Source of the DNA: a virus
Taxonomy: Duplodnaviria; Heunggongvirae; Uroviricota; Caudoviricetes
DNA length: 64,000 nt
Direction: 5' to 3' (one strand)
IMG/VR virus record: IMGVR_UViG_2541047117_000001
Location: 88,841 to 152,840 of that record
Notes under the pieces: model-generated
Seen by the model: the letters and a program-made list of their open reading frames with translations, nothing else
The model's database searches: none
What the model was told of the DNA's origin: nothing
In this document: piece by piece, positions 2,931 to 35,627 of the stretch
How the letters are laid out: every line of letters begins with the position of its first letter
Numbering within the stretch: position 1 is the first letter of the stretch
Made by a program: the position numbers and the translations under genes

Positions 2931-3092
2931 CCTGTATTCTCCTCTAATACATGTTTATTTAATTCTGTAGATTCCTATAATCTCATATTTTGATAGAACT
3001 GCAAAGAAAACTGCGTTGAAATCTTTTGACTTGCTATTGCTATGTCTTCCCTTTATATGAAATCAGACTTTTATCTAATAATGCACTTTTAT

Positions 3093-5029: not shown

Positions 5030-6478
5030 TTATTTAACTCCTTTTAACAATCCATATGCAAATAGTACACGATTCTTTGCTTCTGTTGTTCTTAGATATT
5101 TAGTATCTAAATCCTTGATACGAACTCTGTCTAGCCCGTCAGCATCTTTGAAAATCACATATAGATTCCATGTTCTCTCAGTCTTCTCACTGTCCCAGTT
5201 TAGATTGTATAAAGCATCTTTTGATTCTGCATCGCCAATACAATGATACTCCATGATAAATTCGATGATATCAACCTCATCGTCCGTCATATGATGTAAT
5301 TCATATTCTTCACTTGTATCTTCTCTATTTACTACGTCAATACACGTATACGGGAAACTACCTGAGATTTCTTCATGGTGCTTTAATACGCTTAGCTTTC
5401 CGTGTTCTCTGTCTTCATCATCATTCTCACGACCGATATCATGGAAGCAAGCTACATTGCATAGGATTCCTCTGTCTCTCATGTTTAGATTCAGCGCTCG
5501 TGACAACGATAATGCATGGAATAATACACGTTTACAATGTAGAGTGCCATGAATACCCTCAGGATTGTCAAAGTATTTATCTAAGATGAATGTATTCTTG
5601 TATAAGTGATACTCTTCTGCATATTCATCATCTAGCATTGCTCGAATCTCTTCATTTGTTTTAATCATATTATAAGGTTTGATATCTTCTACATGTTGAG
5701 GGAATGCTAGAATCTCCTCTTCGTTTCTTCCTTGTAGATAGTCGATAACGTGTTCTTTCTTCACTTTTGCTTCATAGATATCACCATCTAATCCTCGACG
5801 CATTGCGAAGAATATTGCTGTATCAAGGTTTAGTGTCCAACTCATTGATTCTGTAGGAGCAGTTGATTTGTCACCGCATCCTCGGTAGATAGTAATCATT
5901 TCATCTGTACCGACATTTGATAGAGTGTCATTTAATCGAGATAGCATTTCGTCTTTGTATGCTGTTTGTTGGTGCTTAACTGCATCCTGTATTAACTCTC
6001 TATCAATTAAATGATGTCCATAGTCTTCATGAGTGTAAAACTCGATGAATAACTCGTATCGGTCTTCTACTGGGACATCCCAGTACATTTTGTTCATGAA
6101 CATGAATTTAACATGCGTATTAGTGAATGTTAGGAATCCAAAGTAATCCTTCTTCTCATGAAGCAGTTTATTTGCATGTGCCTCAAGCCATTCAACATGC
6201 TTTTTCAGTGGCGTCATGCCATGAAGACCAAATATTTCTTTTACAGATGTTGTGCCGAAGTATACAGGAAACTTGCAGTAGCAGAACGGCTCGAAAATCT
6301 TATCACATAAATAGAAATCATCAATTGATAAATCTTGACTTTCTGCATCTCGTTTCAATTCCTCACGAGTCGGTAATTTATATCCTTTTTCATTGAATAG
6401 TGCTATGTTTTCCTCTGTTAGAGGGTATAGGTCATCTTTTGTTATCTGCTGATTCGCCATCATAATAATATCGTCCAT
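5030..6478 (-). CDS. ADP-ribosyltransferase-like domain fused to a C-terminal HD-domain phosphohydrolase
   Basis: IYRG...SWT...RNEEEIL (R-S-E ART pattern), then HGxxH...FHDIGR...H...DADGLDR (HD superfamily). Confidence 0.7.
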   Translation of the reverse strand: MDDIIMMANQQITKDDLYPLTEENIALFNEKGYKLPTREELKRDAESQDLSIDDFYLCDKIFEPFCYCKFPVYFGTTSVKEIFGLHGMTPLKKHVEWLEAHANKLLHEKKDYFGFLTFTNTHVKFMFMNKMYWDVPVEDRYELFIEFYTHEDYGHHLIDRELIQDAVKHQQTAYKDEMLSRLNDTLSNVGTDEMITIYRGCGDKSTAPTESMSWTLNLDTAIFFAMRRGLDGDIYEAKVKKEHVIDYLQGRNEEEILAFPQHVEDIKPYNMIKTNEEIRAMLDDEYAEEYHLYKNTFILDKYFDNPEGIHGTLHCKRVLFHALSLSRALNLNMRDRGILCNVACFHDIGRENDDEDREHGKLSVLKHHEEISGSFPYTCIDVVNREDTSEEYELHHMTDDEVDIIEFIMEYHCIGDAESKDALYNLNWDSEKTERTWNLYVIFKDADGLDRVRIKDLDTKYLRTTEAKNRVLFAYGLLKGVK

Positions 6479-7987: not shown

Positions 7988-8290
7988 TCAATCAGTTCCT
8001 TTTTTTGTCGATTCGCACGCTCTAACGATATACTTCATCAATTTCACATCTTCAAATATGCCATAGTTGCCGTCACAATCTACTCCGATTATAGGATTAG
8101 AATCATCTTGCATAGAATAAATCATGTCAATAAGCTCTCTTTTACCGTATCTAGTACCTATACCAATTGCATAAGCAATCTTTCGTAAATGTGCAATATC
8201 AATATTTTGTATCTTATGATTTGGATAAAAATGTTTCAGATAAGCTTTCATTTGTCTTTCTTTTTTTAGAAGTTTGTCTCTAATCACCAC
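7988..8290 (-). CDS. Hypothetical protein
   Basis: ORF track, RBS GAAAGGAG. Confidence 0.7.
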   Translation of the reverse strand: MVIRDKLLKKERQMKAYLKHFYPNHKIQNIDIAHLRKIAYAIGIGTRYGKRELIDMIYSMQDDSNPIIGVDCDGNYGIFEDVKLMKYIVRACESTKKGTD

Positions 8291-23330: not shown

Positions 23331-24320
23331 TGTAGTGATGGTATTATGTGGTAAATTTCAAGCGGTTTCGCTATTCCCTATGGGCAATTCTGAGAGAGTT
23401 AGCAAGGTGGTAGTACGTGAAATGAAAGATAATCGCCTCAGAGAGCGCCACAGGGAGTGGTGTTTGGTGGCAAATTTGGTTGATATAGTGTTCGACGGAT
23501 AGACATATGTTATAGTGCAACCGATAACCGACACGGAACGGCAACCCGTGGCGAATCTCAAACCCAACCGCAAACCGTGGCAAATTCGCTTGCCATCTCG
23601 TGGCGAATCCGCACGAAGCCGAGCCGAGCCGACGAGCCGACGACCACGGAGACGAGCGACGCCAACAAGTGCAACCGAGCCGAACCACGACACCCATAAA
23701 GGCAAGTGTCCCACAAGTAAAGTTATAGGACGGGGATAGTTTACAATCTCGAACCGCCACCAACAATAGAACAGCCACGCAACTGTACATCACCTAGACC
23801 CACTTTTCTGTGGGGACTCGATGTCAGCCAACTTTGTTGCATTTCCTATTACTTTGTCCGATTTTACCCTATATTTAGATGCTATCGAAACGCTATCGCT
23901 AAACCACTTATTTTCCTATTATTTTGCTCTCAACTCAAACCTCGATTTTGTCCGATAACCAACCGATTCAAATCTATCAATCTTATAATCCATAAATAAA
24001 AACGATGACTCCTTAAATTTTCCCTTATTTTAGGATTCATCGTTAGCTAAATTCCGTATTCAATTCTATCATTTTGGCTTACATTTTATTTCTCAGCTCT
24101 CACAGGCATTAATTTCGAATCTATTAATCTTTGATTCCCTTCAATTTTGGCTTCAACTGTTAGCCAACTCGATAACCAAATCGTTAATAATCTTATAGTT
24201 TCATTTTATTAATTTCGCAAACTCAAAAATTTCCCCGATTAGCTGATTCAATTATCCGTAGATACAGCAATGCCCCACGCCTAAATCGACGAGGGGTGGG
24301 GGTGCGATAAACAATTTCCG

Positions 24321-31689: not shown

Positions 31690-31989
31690 ATGAAAAAAAT
31701 GAATACACAATTATTATCTAAAGAGGTACAAGGAACTTTACGTGAGGAAATGGGTCTTAAATTAAATCAAACTGACGCTCGTCGTGTAGTAGATGCAGTA
31801 ACAGGTGCTATCGTTGAAGGTATGAAAGAACACGGTGCAGTTAAAGTTGCAGGTTTAGGAACGTTCACACGTCAATTCAAAGAAGCAGGTACAGCACGTA
31901 ACCCGAAAACTGGTGAAGAAGTACAAGTTGCTGAAAAGCACGTACCTAAGTTCAAGGCTTCTCAAGCTTTAAAAGATTCAGTACGTTAA
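31690..31989 (+). CDS. hup: HU-family histone-like DNA-binding protein
   Basis: VKVAGLGTF...ARNPKTGEEVQV...PKFKASQALKDSV. Confidence 0.95.
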   Translation: MKKMNTQLLSKEVQGTLREEMGLKLNQTDARRVVDAVTGAIVEGMKEHGAVKVAGLGTFTRQFKEAGTARNPKTGEEVQVAEKHVPKFKASQALKDSVR

Positions 31990-32022
31990 TTCACAATTAA
32001 ATCTCATAGAGATTACAAGTTA

Positions 32023-32059
32023 ACGAGGTAGTAGAGATAACTCTATTATCTCGTTTTTT
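32023..32059 (+). terminator. Intrinsic terminator after HU
   Basis: ACGAGGTAGTAGAG/CTCTATTATCTCGT plus T-run. Confidence 0.75.
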
Positions 32060-32132
32060 GCACCTATAGCTCCAATGGTAGAGCAGAGAGCTGTTAACTC
32101 TTTGGTTGGTGGTTCGAGTCCATCTAGGTGCG
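32060..32132 (+). tRNA. trnN: tRNA-Asn(GTT)
   Basis: Cloverleaf; GAGAG-CTGTTAA-CTCTT. Confidence 0.93.
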
Positions 32133-32174
32133 TCATTGTTTTTAAAGAGAAAAGAGAAAAAGGGGATAGGGATT

Positions 32175-32417
32175 ATGTTTAATAAAGATGTACACGGTAA
32201 AAGAATCAGAAAAGCTCAAGCTAAAACGCAATCCGCTCAAGAGGTATTTGTAAAAGCGATTGAAGATATTGATGCGTCTGATGAGCATTTAGATGAAGTA
32301 ATCAAAGAAGCTCAAGCTGAAATTACTAATCTACAATCCTTTGTAGAAGATGCAAAAACAAGTAAAGCTGAGAATGATGTTTTAAGAAAGAATATTCAAG
32401 GCTTAGTTAGTATTTAA
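32175..32417 (+). CDS. Small coiled-coil protein inside the tRNA island
   Basis: Start moved to MFNKD after AGGGA. Confidence 0.75.
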   Translation: MFNKDVHGKRIRKAQAKTQSAQEVFVKAIEDIDASDEHLDEVIKEAQAEITNLQSFVEDAKTSKAENDVLRKNIQGLVSI

Positions 32418-32446
32418 TATTTCGCATCCTTAGTGGATGCTTTTAT

Positions 32447-32521
32447 GGTGTATTAGTGTAGCGGTTAACACGCTAGCCTGTCACGCTAGTAGCACGGGTT
32501 CGATTCCCGTATACACCGCCA
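32447..32521 (+). tRNA. trnD: tRNA-Asp(GTC)
   Basis: Cloverleaf, encoded CCA. Confidence 0.95.
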
Positions 32522-32524
32522 TTA

Positions 32525-32600
32525 TTTCCGAGTAGACGAACTGGTAAAGTCACTAGTCTTTGAAGCTAGAGTTTGGAGGTTCGAAGCCTTCCTTGGAAAT
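32525..32600 (+). tRNA. trnQ: tRNA-Gln(TTG)
   Basis: CTAGT-CTTTGAA-GCTAG. Confidence 0.85.
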
Positions 32601-32610
32601 CGACCAAAGT

Positions 32611-32687
32611 CCATGCTTTGGAAACTAGATATTAGTTTAGTTTAGTTTAGTTTAGTCTAGTATTAGTATCTAGTTTCCAGTGTGTGG
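32611..32687 (+). promoter_or_regulatory. UAG-repeat hairpin overlapping the 5' end of tRNA-His
   Basis: 13-bp perfect arms at 32619-32631 and 32667-32679; (TTTAG)4 interior; 9 TAG triplets. Confidence 0.7.
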
Positions 32688-32748
32688 CGTAATGGTAACG
32701 CAGTGGACTGTGAATCCATGAATGAGAGTTCGATTCTCTCCATGCTGA
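32678..32748 (+). tRNA. trnH: tRNA-His(GTG), non-canonical identity (C-1, A73)
   Basis: GTGGA-CTGTGAA-TCCAT; acceptor stem CAGTGTG/CATGCTG. Confidence 0.85.
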
Positions 32749-32749
32749 T

Positions 32750-32878
32750 TGTTGGTGAGCAACATAAAAACTCAATACACATTCTAGACGTAGGAGCTAG
32801 ACGTTGACAAGCAACATAAAAACTTGAATGATGTGGACGCAGGGGAGTAGCGCCACGTAAAAAACATAACAGCTCCTT
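32750..32878 (+). ncRNA. Three tandem H-type pseudoknots (PK1-3)
   Basis: Manual pairing; compensatory stem-2 change between PK1 and PK2. Confidence 0.65.
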
Positions 32879-32881
32879 TAA

Positions 32882-32955
32882 GCCGACTTAGCTCAGCAGG
32901 TTAGAGCGGTTGCCTTGTAAGCAACAGGTCGTGGGTTCGATTCCTACAGTCGGCA
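32882..32955 (+). tRNA. trnT: tRNA-Thr(TGT)
   Basis: GTTGC-CTTGTAA-GCAAC. Confidence 0.95.
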
Positions 32956-32957
32956 TT

Positions 32958-33044
32958 GACGTTTTTACCGAGTCCACGTCGTTAATCTACGATTCGGTAC
33001 GCAAAGCGGTAGGTTCTGCTTGACCTATGATATCAAAACAAGCA
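32958..33044 (+). ncRNA. Two tandem H-type pseudoknots (PK4-5)
   Basis: GACGT/ACGTC + TACCGAGT/ATTCGGTA; GTAGGT/ACCTAT + TGCTTG/CAAGCA. Confidence 0.7.
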
Positions 33045-33052
33045 TCCATTAT

Positions 33053-33202
<150 letters not shown>

Positions 33203-33210
33203 TCATTTAT

Positions 33211-33284
33211 GAGGAGATGGTGAAGAGGCTTAACACGGTAGGTTGCAACCCTATTATTCGTGGGTTCAAATCCCACTCTTCTCT
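33211..33284 (+). tRNA. trnC: tRNA-Cys(GCA)
   Basis: GTAGG-TTGCAAC-CCTAT; U73. Confidence 0.92.
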
Positions 33285-33298
33285 TAGTTTTGTAGCAT

Positions 33299-33370
33299 GT
33301 GGTATTGGTCTAATGGCTATGATTTCTGACTTCCAATCAGAAGATGAGAGTTCGATTCTCTCATACCACA
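33299..33370 (+). tRNA. trnG: tRNA-Gly(TCC)
   Basis: TCTGA-CTTCCAA-TCAGA. Confidence 0.9.
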
Positions 33371-33379
33371 TCATTTTTT

Positions 33380-33453
33380 ACCCCTATCGCCAAGTGGATT
33401 AAGGCAACGGGCTTCTATCCCGTTATTCGGGAGTTCGAATCTCTCTAGGGGTG
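33380..33453 (+). tRNA. trnR: tRNA-Arg(TCT)
   Basis: ACGGG-CTTCTAT-CCCGT. Confidence 0.92.
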
Positions 33454-33578
33454 TTAGAACTTAATCAGTTTCTTTCTAATGGAAGGCATGGGTCATGCCC
33501 TAATCCAAATATTCCATGTGAAAGTTTTATCTTCGAAAGGCGTTCGAATAAAAAACCAAATGAACCTTTAAGCAATAT

Positions 33579-33663
33579 GGCAGGGTAGTCTAGTGGCAAT
33601 GACAGGAGACTGTAAATCTCCCCTCAATCGAGTTCGTAGGTTCGAGTCCTACCCCTGCCACCA
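33579..33663 (+). tRNA. trnY: tRNA-Tyr(GTA)
   Basis: Long variable arm, CCA. Confidence 0.95.
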
Positions 33664-33666
33664 TAT

Positions 33667-33737
33667 GGAGTTTTAGTTTAACTGGCAAAACACTTGGCGT
33701 AGTCAAGGCGTAATCGGTTCGAGTCCGATAAACTCCT
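33667..33737 (+). pseudogene. Aberrant tRNA with a 5-nt anticodon loop (CGTAG)
   Basis: Intact acceptor, D and T arms; stem CTTGG/TCAAG closes only 5 nt. Confidence 0.7.
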
Positions 33738-33750
33738 CCCTCCCTTCAAT

Positions 33751-33822
33751 GCATCCTTAGTTTAAAGTGAAAACGGACTGCTTAAAAGCCGTTGTATGTG
33801 GGTTCGAACCCCACAGGGTGCA
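33751..33822 (+). pseudogene. Aberrant tRNA with an irregular anticodon arm
   Basis: GCATCCT/AGGGTGC acceptor, TTCGAAC T-loop, no canonical 5-bp/7-nt anticodon arm. Confidence 0.65.
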
Positions 33823-33827
33823 TCTTT

Positions 33828-34640
33828 ACTTCGAGGTTTGGCTCTGATAGCGTAACGTGAGTTGCGTAAAGGCAATGTGACAAGTTGCCACCGTGTAAAC
33901 GGTCAATCCAAGCACAATCGACACTCCTAAGTCATCATTATGATGGTGATAGTTTCATGAAATTACGGAGAAAACGCTACGAGGTCAACGATGTAGTAGC
34001 AGTATTGGTTAGCACCAATACACTCCACGCTAAGGTAATGAAGAAGCGAGAGTGAATCGAGAGATTGTACAGTCCGAGTTTAACAAGCAAGGGCGACAAT
34101 CAGTAATGAAAGAGAAATGGTCGAAAGCCAAAGTAACTTTGATTACGGTTTGAGTAGCTAGTTGGCGAAAGAACATGAAGGCGTGTGGTATTTTGTAATC
34201 CAAAAGATTACGAAGCCACTGAGACAGCACGTCTTCTGTCACACAGACTAATAAGATGTTAGATATGGTAATCCAAAGAGATGATTAAAATATGACTAAT
34301 TAAAATTCATACATACAAGCGAAAGCCTGTCTCCTTACATTACGAAGGCAACCTAAATCCCCACAAGAAGTTGAATGGGGAGCATGATGAGTTCGCAAAA
34401 CTCTGATTGTTTGATAGTGAATTGCATGGTTCTCTTAGCAGAGATTAATAGCGTGGCAACGTTGACAGAATCGGAACTATTGAGTAGTAGTGTAACAGGT
34501 CGCAGAATGCACAGCGACTAATTAAAACGTGCGGTTGTGAGTGATACGTAGTTGCTCCAAAAGAGGATTACGTGGATAAGAGAGGAAGATATAATCTTTC
34601 TAAAGGCACTCAATGCGAGGTTTAATCTCAGCCTACGCAA
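33828..34640 (+). ncRNA. GOLLD-like giant structured RNA (about 810 nt)
   Basis: No credible ORF, dense GNRA-capped stems, lies in a tRNA cluster. Motifs GAGTAGC...GAAAGAACATGA...TGTGGTATTTTG...CAAAAG...CCACTG and 3' TAATCTCAGCCTA match GOLLD as I recall it. Boundaries approximate. Confidence 0.7.
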
Positions 34641-34676
34641 GACCAGTTCTGTTTTTACGGGATTGGATTTTATCTT

Positions 34677-34765
34677 GGAGAGGTACTCAAGTGGCTCAAG
34701 AGGCTTCCCTGCTAAGGAAGTAGGACGCATTGTGCGTTGCGTGGGTTCGAATCCCACCCTCTCCA
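34677..34765 (+). tRNA. trnS: tRNA-Ser(GCT)
   Basis: CTTCC-CTGCTAA-GGAAG, long variable arm. Confidence 0.93.
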
Positions 34766-34769
34766 TTAA

Positions 34770-35125
34770 AGGTGGACTAAGCCTACAAATTAGTCAGGTG
34801 CAAAGGCAACTGCATCATTCCCGAATGGGGGACGATTAAAAATACCATTATCTATCCCGATAAGAGATTGTCTTATCTGATTGCTATCATCGCAGTCACC
34901 GTTGAAGATATCACAACGGTAGACATTGGAAAGTCGCTCTGTTTCTCATATTGAAGGCAAGTGTGGGAGCGATAGAGTTCGTTGACGATGGTTTATGCGA
35001 ACATTATAGACAACTAAATATGAAAAAGTGCAACCTCACATGAGTTTCTTGCACTTCTTATGTGAGTTTTTTCAAATGTATGTAGGTTTCTACCCTAAGC
35101 GTTCCTACTAAATATAAACGGTAAG
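34770..35125 (+). ncRNA. Candidate structured non-coding RNA(s)
   Basis: About 10 consecutive hairpins or pseudoknot-like pairings; no ORF. Confidence 0.45.
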
Positions 35126-35132
35126 GTGACAT

Positions 35133-35207
35133 GCGCCTTTAGTGTAATTGGCAACACAGAAGTCTCCAAAACTTCTATTCTAGGTTCGAGTCCTAGAGGG
35201 CGTGCCA
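35133..35207 (+). tRNA. trnW: tRNA-Trp(CCA)
   Basis: GAAGT-CTCCAAA-ACTTC, encoded CCA. Confidence 0.95.
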
Positions 35208-35212
35208 AATAT

Positions 35213-35255
35213 GTAGGTTGTGGTTTTAATAGTGGTTCGACTCCGCTAACCTGCA
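35213..35255 (+). ncRNA. tRNA minihelix (acceptor stem plus T arm only)
   Basis: GTAGGTT/AACCTGC, AGTGG-TTCGACT-CCGCT, 11-nt linker. Confidence 0.7.
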
Positions 35256-35333
35256 CTCTTAATTAGAATTTAAATGTACGAATACATTATATAATATTAT
35301 ATACAATAACATAATATATTTTCTGTATTATAC

Positions 35334-35357
35334 GACACCGAGATAGGTGTCTTTTTT
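35334..35357 (+). terminator. Terminator closing the RNA island
   Basis: GACACC-GAGATA-GGTGTC plus T-run. Confidence 0.8.
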
Positions 35358-35423
35358 GTTGTATATAGGTCGGTAAAATTTCATTTACCGCAATGGATTA
35401 TGAGAAAAAGGGGAAATGTAGAC

Positions 35424-35627
35424 ATGGCAAAAGAGACACATACAATTAATGTAAAAGGTTTACTAGATGCTGAGAATCGCATTATCACAGAATATGATAA
35501 AAAAGGTGTTTGCCTTGGAGATGTTCATATTGATAGTGAATTAGCTAAATTTAATGGAGCTGAAATTTCGTTAACTCTAAAATTGGACAAAGTTTTAAAT
35601 GAGCCAAATGATGAGGCGGAATACTAA
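35424..35627 (+). CDS. YonK-family protein
   Basis: HTINVKGLLD...ITEYDK...FNGAEISLTLK resembles SPbeta YonK; start moved. Confidence 0.65.
   Translation: MAKETHTINVKGLLDAENRIITEYDKKGVCLGDVHIDSELAKFNGAEISLTLKLDKVLNEPNDEAEY

Follow-up and report, generated by a model that had tools for sequence, protein, structure and literature searches.

In the window (the whole 64,000-nt stretch of viral DNA that was analyzed), positions 33835 to 34634 on the plus strand very probably contain the gene for a complete GOLLD RNA of about 800 nt (our own estimate is a probability of about 0.85). The carrier is a phage or phage-plasmid of 153 kb. The 3´ domain of this RNA is a bona fide member of the GOLLD family. 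GOLLD belongs to the small number of large RNAs of bacteria and phages for which a striking structure has been solved; it forms a cage of RNA alone that is larger than the ribosome. We know of no published work that shows its function. The literature places GOLLD in phage tRNA clusters, regards its function as not established and describes RNA-only multimers (PMC12286853), which agrees with the background given in the preliminary description of this DNA. The identification is correct, yet the copy is already catalogued and is no new kind of object, because the same locus is a row in the retrieved part of the alignment of Kretsch et al. 2025. The present analysis makes modest additions: it assigns a type to the 5´ domain and describes the mixed make-up of the two domains and the setting in which the RNA would be processed.

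The 3´ domain and the published record

RF02032 (GOLLD) was matched over its entire model (positions 1–416 of 416) at 34176–34634 on the plus strand by Rfam cmscan, with 204.6 bits (E 2.6e-56) compared with an Rfam gathering cut-off of 150 bits. The model spans the conserved 3´ domain of GOLLD only. It aligned without truncation, and the first hairpin, the multi-helix core and the 3´ end UAAUCUCAGCCU are all present. This is the single GOLLD match in the whole virus record, and the RF02032 search of 14 control genomes returned zero matches. In a permissive scan of 31900–35450 with all Rfam families, the only other matches were tRNAs and sub-threshold noise. The preliminary description had pointed to GOLLD motifs in this stretch and had named GOLLD and ROOL as the covariance models to compare; the former exceeds its gathering score, and the latter has no match at E ≤ 1 in 31900–35450. 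ROOL is likewise a large, ornate, phage-associated RNA-only cage without an established function (PMC12286853). Its cages are octameric or hexameric and are also tied to phages and tRNAs, but its sequence and fold are unrelated to those of GOLLD. The score of 204.6 bits is low for GOLLD: one other fetched copy reaches 198.6 bits, and the remainder score 260–322 bits. Several conserved GOLLD positions are changed in the present copy.

The 800 nt from 33835 to 34634 (+) show no sign of coding. The fold z-score is −3.81 for 33825–34175 and −3.44 for 33825–34640, and in both cases 0 shuffles fold equally well. The stretch of about 810 nt (33828–34640) that had been described as highly structured and free of ORFs is therefore predicted to fold strongly, and its ends were right within 7 nt.

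The carrier record is 152,852 bp long, has direct terminal repeats and is rated complete by CheckV. The GOLLD alignment of Kretsch et al. 2025 (PMC12286853, Supplementary File 3), which covers the 3´ domain only, contains in its retrieved part the row "KB976126.1:123016-123474, Bacillus cereus HuA3-9". The coordinates 123016–123474 of this row are those of the RF02032 match in its own record, and the first block of the row, UGAAGGCGUGUGGUAUUUUGUAAUCCAAAAGAUUACG (37 bases), is identical to the window from 34176 on. By the accession in that part of the alignment, the record belongs to Bacillus cereus HuA3-9, and the virus is referred to below as the HuA3-9 phage. A sister phage (IMG/VR contig 2822641076_000001), the exonuclease protein of which is 96% identical, carries its GOLLD at 23651–24108 (−); this copy is the row "NVFN01000012.1:c24108-23651 Bacillus toyonensis AFS083349" among the retrieved rows. 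About twenty further B. cereus-group rows in the same material have the same first hairpin, which is identical or nearly so in B. thuringiensis, B. toyonensis, B. bombysepticus and Bacillus sp. REN51N.

Both hairpins inside P21 were aligned by cmscan in the core of the 3´ domain, with the loops UUAGCA and UGGCAA. Each loop holds a self-complementary GC, as located by our own position count and not by the numbering of the published structure; a self-complementary GC is reported for loop L21a of env-38. The env-38 RNA, a GOLLD from a marine metagenome, has the same 3´ plan, which includes both P21 hairpins, the CAAAA loop, the variable linker and the conserved 3´ end. An env-type locus (L117) also contains both P21 hairpins, whereas one is deleted in the GOLLD of the Streptococcus agalactiae phage LYGO9 (JX409894.1). 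The aligned sequence thus makes the 3´ domain of the HuA3-9 copy env-like in its predicted P21 make-up. The deletion in LYGO9 agrees with the statement in a review that S. agalactiae GOLLD lacks P21b (PMC12990946); with both hairpins present, the HuA3-9 copy differs from the S. agalactiae subclass, for which the absence of P21b is the criterion. The 3´ domain of LYGO9 is 376 nt long and scores 260.6 bits, compared with 459 nt, 204.6 bits and a longer linker in the HuA3-9 copy. No tRNA is predicted inside the linker at 34238–34318. In the env-38 structure, this linker lacks order and points into the cage interior (PMC12286853).

Table 1. Features of the GOLLD locus and its flanks, with window positions and identity to the sister phage.
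Feature	Position	Strand	Basis and remarks	Identity to sister phage
tRNA-like gene upstream of GOLLD	33750..33824	+	Rfam tRNA, 44.5 bits; ends 10 nt before GOLLD	86.7%
GOLLD 5´ domain, predicted Streptococcus-like type, 341 nt	33835..34175	+	models R2 and R3 in expected order; fold z −3.81	97.7%
First half of 5´ domain	33835..33988	+	closing helix, three hairpins (GUGA loop, 7-nt loop, GUAA loop), UCAAUCCAAGCA strand, fourth hairpin	
Small hairpin, motif GAGGnnAACnnnGUAG	33979..34003	+	17-nt exact match to env-type loci	
5´ domain hairpin, internal loops AGUCCGAG / CAAGGGCG	34060..34101	+	R3 positions 50–90, 13.2 bits; common to Streptococcus type	
GOLLD conserved 3´ domain	34176..34634	+	RF02032, 459 nt, 204.6 bits	
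First hairpin of 3´ domain (P13/P14), conserved CAAAA loop	34176..34237	+	cmscan alignment	98.4%
A/U-rich variable linker (J13/15)	34238..34318	+	low posterior probability, 25-nt insertion in cmscan alignment	92.2% and 5 indel columns; least conserved GOLLD segment
3´ domain core, conserved 3´ end ...UAAUCUCAGCCU	34319..34634	+	cmscan alignment	98.4%
Weak terminator-like hairpin and U-rich run	34643..34666	+	10 pairs, 4 G-C; in 41-nt spacer after GOLLD	
tRNA-Ser(GCU)	34676..34766	+	ARAGORN and Rfam, 60 bits; begins 41 nt after GOLLD	65.9%
Likely terminator closing tRNA/GOLLD island	35334..35351	+	G+C-rich hairpin, then TTTTTTG	

The 5´ domain

The Rfam model and the published alignment both end at the 3´ domain, so the 341 nt upstream were tested separately. 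The likeness to streptococcal GOLLDs (taken from the phages LYGO9, UPM1, Javan565, Javan584, Javan636 and IC1) was first recognized by eye and then modeled. LYGO9 and the HuA3-9 copy have the same 5´ plan, in which a GGYUURGC...GAUA strand, a GNRA hairpin, AAAG and a second hairpin are followed by a 4-bp hairpin, a UCAAUCYAAGCA strand and a further hairpin. The hairpin AGUYCRAG/CAAGRGCG is also common to both. The covariance model R2, which has 150 positions and was built only from five Streptococcus-phage 5´ domain sequences, matches 33835–33988 over model positions 1–150 with 21.6 bits (E 6.3e-4, a rough value, as for all models R1–R3), at the position and on the strand where it is expected. 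It matches the equivalent place in the sister phage with 20.3 bits. In the 8-sequence R2 alignment, 90% of the cells are paired and 19 of the 35 pairs show compensatory changes, compared with 29–38% paired in slid controls, although the alignment was fitted to R2. R3, which covers the second half of this 5´ domain type, follows R2 in the right order; its match at 34060–34101 has an E-value of 0.08 over 82 kb and of 6e-4 over 601 nt. The 5´ domain is contiguous with the 3´ domain, with no tRNA or predicted terminator between them, and its length compares with 310–324 nt in streptococcal GOLLDs. Across the family, the 5´ domain measures about 300–420 nt and varies more than the 3´ domain.

From viral and genome contigs, 63 distinct GOLLD 3´ domains were gathered with their flanks. 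In 45 of these, the 5´ domain is of the marine/lake "env-38" type, which is well conserved and about 400 nt long. R2 has no match in the 5´ domains of these 45 loci (643 kb background). Conversely, the env-type 5´ domain was detected in the HuA3-9 copy neither by HMM nor by covariance model, except for the hairpin at 33979–34003: the 45-sequence env-type profile returned nothing in 33000–35500 (nhmmer, E ≤ 10), and R1, the covariance model of the first half of the env-type 5´ domain, gave in the window only a local match to this 25-nt hairpin (9.8 bits, E 0.19). The hairpin is the one small 5´ element that the env-38 type and the HuA3-9 copy have in common. Its motif GAGGnnAACnnnGUAG is conserved across the 45 env-type sequences, and a similar stretch is seen by eye in Streptococcus. 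The model matches show the predicted 5´ domain to be of the Streptococcus agalactiae-like type and not of the marine env-38 type.

The sequence-only Streptococcus 5´ profile found nothing with nhmmer, in contrast to the structure-aware R2, which alone succeeded, and no blastn-level similarity to streptococcal GOLLD was detected. About 145 nt of the HuA3-9 5´ domain (33989–34059 and 34102–34175) match no model and have no streptococcal counterpart; their structure is a prediction only, because two near-identical sequences lie behind it. R2 also matches two high-GC phage contigs upstream of a GOLLD 3´ domain, where a 5´ domain would be expected, with 36 and 30 bits. The Streptococcus-type 5´ domain is therefore not confined to phages of Firmicutes. 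The 5´ start fits R2 at 6452–6593 in L191 and at 3050–3192 in L150, both phage contigs of about 80 kb with a GC content of about 0.6. A further R2 match of 20 bits, at 8063–8153 (−) in L156, lies about 3 kb from the GOLLD of that contig and is either a chance match or a second, partial element; at such a score, R2 is near noise on score alone.

The sister phage is the one close relative that was retrieved. The blastn search of 33700–34800 against 50,697 phage records gave tRNA-Ser matches only, and the search against plasmids gave a single irrelevant 69-nt match. A Bacillus-specific 27-mer was found in the sister phage alone among viral contigs and in none of the metagenome contigs, in which the 5´-domain pattern also gave nothing. 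One scan of genome contigs returned no Bacillus or Lactobacillales genome. Two 3´-domain motif patterns located about 90 GOLLD loci on viral contigs, all of which, with the exception of the sister phage, are environmental or high-GC.

The tRNA island

The GOLLD gene lies in an island of 15 tRNA genes (32059–35207, ARAGORN/Rfam), all on the plus strand. The island is preceded by genes for an exonuclease V/helicase, a sigma-factor-like protein and a DNA-binding protein. It is followed by exonuclease, terminase, portal and tail genes, including an ORF of 2705 aa at the position of the tape-measure gene. The last tRNA is tRNA-Trp (35133–35207), which precedes the terminator-like site at 35334–35351. 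Directly after it, at 35208–35260, a T-arm-like GGTTCGACTCC can be read; this is the element that had been called a minihelix. Between 33257 and GOLLD, a simple scan detected nothing that resembles a promoter. The putative terminator-like hairpin at 34643–34666 has only one change in the sister phage.

The two tRNA genes next to GOLLD differ in character. ARAGORN reports 33750–33824 as an undetermined tRNA with a two-base "anticodon". Its equivalent in the sister phage, with a loop of 7 nt, is called a tRNA-Phe with the unusual anticodon AAA (ARAGORN); compared with the sister, one base of the anticodon loop has been lost. This tRNA-like gene may be a processing signal rather than a decoder, and it probably supplies the processing site that sets the 5´ end of GOLLD. 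On the other side, tRNA-Ser(GCU) probably supplies the RNase P site that sets the 3´ side. The flanks of this tRNA-Ser gene are 97–100% identical to the sister, so that the gene itself resembles an allele swap.

The comparison of the two phages extends over the whole island. At about 32100, 32750, 33450–33550 and 34900, the sister has different sequence or lacks the block (10–29% identity). By this alignment, the tRNA island is a mosaic, and GOLLD is its best-kept element, because its domains are about 98% identical, in contrast to the replaced blocks and the less conserved flanking tRNA genes.

Tight tRNA flanks are usual for GOLLD and recur around other copies. Among the streptococcal copies fetched, those from phages of S. 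agalactiae, S. suis and S. uberis adjoin a tRNA within about 10 nt at one or both ends. In LYGO9 and UPM1, tRNA-Ser(GCU) begins 8–9 nt after GOLLD; LYGO9 shares with the HuA3-9 phage both this tRNA directly 3´ of GOLLD and the position ahead of the packaging genes. The order is GOLLD, tRNA-Phe and tRNA-Trp in Javan565, and tRNA-Ser(GCU), GOLLD and a tRNA with the anticodon UUA in Javan636. The last gene (1120–1197 in L230, the Javan636 locus; 10 nt after GOLLD) is of the ochre-suppressor type according to ARAGORN. The S. pneumoniae phage IC1 has no tRNA near its GOLLD. Five of seven environmental loci have a nearby tRNA, which is within 10 nt of the 3´ end in two. Across phages, the tRNAs adjoining GOLLD are those for Met, Gly, Leu, Phe, Trp and Ser.

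The nearest named relatives of the HuA3-9 phage are Tsamsa and vB_BcoS-136. These large Bacillus siphophages, the portal of which is about 40% identical, have a syntenic tRNA island in which GOLLD is absent. A PhoH-like gene flanks the tRNA island in Tsamsa (L224) and in vB_BcoS-136 (L223). In Tsamsa, a gene of about 480 aa annotated as "RNA-binding protein" (gp247) is a further flanking gene (positions noted in L224: 1271–2506 and 5404–6846), and vB_BcoS-136 has a homologue of it without a name. Beside the island of the HuA3-9 phage, neither position is occupied by an ORF of similar size.

Alternative explanations and a putative RNA cage

The preliminary description proposed a larger RNA-based system, in which GOLLD would be one module of a machine that also includes spacer pseudoknots, aberrant tRNAs and the minihelix. 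All of these elements share a strand within a 3.1-kb island without a family-matching ORF, promoter-like sites are absent after 33257 in the simple scan, which shows a terminator-like site only at 35334–35351, and the tRNA-like gene abutting GOLLD is indeed aberrant. The island, however, is a mosaic between the sister phages (66% identity for tRNA-Ser, about 98% for GOLLD), GOLLD relatives adjoin differing tRNAs, and the syntenic islands of Tsamsa and vB_BcoS-136 do without GOLLD; the neighbors are therefore interchangeable. In support of a larger machine, nothing was found beyond the known association of the family with tRNA arrays, and such a machine is unlikely. Less probable still is a decaying, nonfunctional GOLLD relic that is kept only by the recent common descent of two phages. 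The RF02032 score is among the lowest of the copies examined, and only two close sequences are at hand; yet the full model is matched without truncation, the divergence falls mostly in the linker that varies family-wide, both domains outconserve the flanking tRNA genes, and the changes that set the helices apart from those of the streptococcal copies are compensatory. The roughly 20 additional B. cereus-group copies with the same first hairpin in the retrieved rows of the alignment also speak against decay.

It is just as improbable as a relic that the 5´ 340 nt are a separate structured RNA or leader upstream of a GOLLD that consists of the 3´ domain only. Rfam models only this domain, and neither the env-type 5´ profiles nor the sequence-only Streptococcus profile match; against this, R2 aligns over its full length in both phages, with the spacing and strand that a GOLLD 5´ domain should have, the R3 element comes next in the right order, no tRNA or predicted terminator precedes the 3´ domain, and 341 nt is close to the streptococcal lengths. 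The least probable reading is that the region encodes small proteins instead of, or besides, an RNA. The longest ORFs overlapping GOLLD, called mechanically on both strands, have 40–95 aa. Five of them (48–95 aa) were tested and belong to no Pfam or PHROG family at E ≤ 0.1; moreover, the starts are mostly TTG or GTG, two of the ORFs extend into the tRNA-Ser gene, and the conservation is explained by the RNA model.

As a full-length GOLLD, the RNA would be transcribed within the precursor of the tRNA island, because no promoter-like site lies between 33257 and the gene and the only clear terminator-like site is at 35334–35351. It would then be released by tRNA-processing enzymes, with RNase Z or another 3´ activity acting upstream and RNase P acting at the downstream tRNA; the tight tRNA flanks, which the HuA3-9 copy has in common with those fetched from phages of S. 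agalactiae, S. suis and S. uberis, support such a release by the tRNA-processing machinery. In the solved GOLLDs, the 5´ domain forms the cap, the 3´ domain forms the ring and the linker is located inside (PMC12286853, PMC12990946). By analogy with these two structures, the HuA3-9 RNA would fold into a 5´ "cap" and a 3´ "ring" domain, and its copies may join by loop-loop and A-minor contacts to give a closed, RNA-only dihedral cage with the linker pointing inwards. The number of copies would be on the order of 12–14, as judged from relatives: the full-length S. agalactiae GOLLD is a dodecamer by cryo-EM (PDB 9L0R; PMC12990946), and the env-38 GOLLD is a 14-mer with D7 symmetry (PDB 9MEE; PMC12286853).

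The B. cereus-group GOLLD may be a natural mix that combines a Streptococcus-type cap, a ring with both P21 hairpins and about 145 nt of lineage-specific 5´ sequence. A review proposes that the cap domain sets the copy number (PMC12990946). If so, the cage of the HuA3-9 RNA may differ in stoichiometry or geometry from any seen so far; we consider this reading, mixed make-up included, a real prospect that falls somewhat short of even odds. With a Streptococcus-like 5´ domain and an env-like 3´ domain, it offers a useful third test case for the cap domain as the determinant of cage size. The source is also of practical value, as it is a complete (CheckV) 153-kb phage of the B. cereus group, and this host is cultivable and open to phage genetics. 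The expression of another GOLLD is reported to rise during lytic growth (cited in PMC12286853). The cage might serve the late, translation-heavy phase of phage growth and might hold or shield an RNA or a translation component. This most speculative of our proposals, which we regard as doubtful, is drawn from the neighborhood, in which the only constant neighbor is the tRNA array, ahead of the packaging and structural genes.

The HuA3-9 phage has a single GOLLD, unlike several B. cereus-group genomes among the retrieved rows of the published alignment. In these, two copies lie 3–6 kb apart on one contig, as in B. thuringiensis SRCM116092, B. cereus group sp. TH152-1LC, B. cereus AFS048015 and Bacillus sp. 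REN51N.
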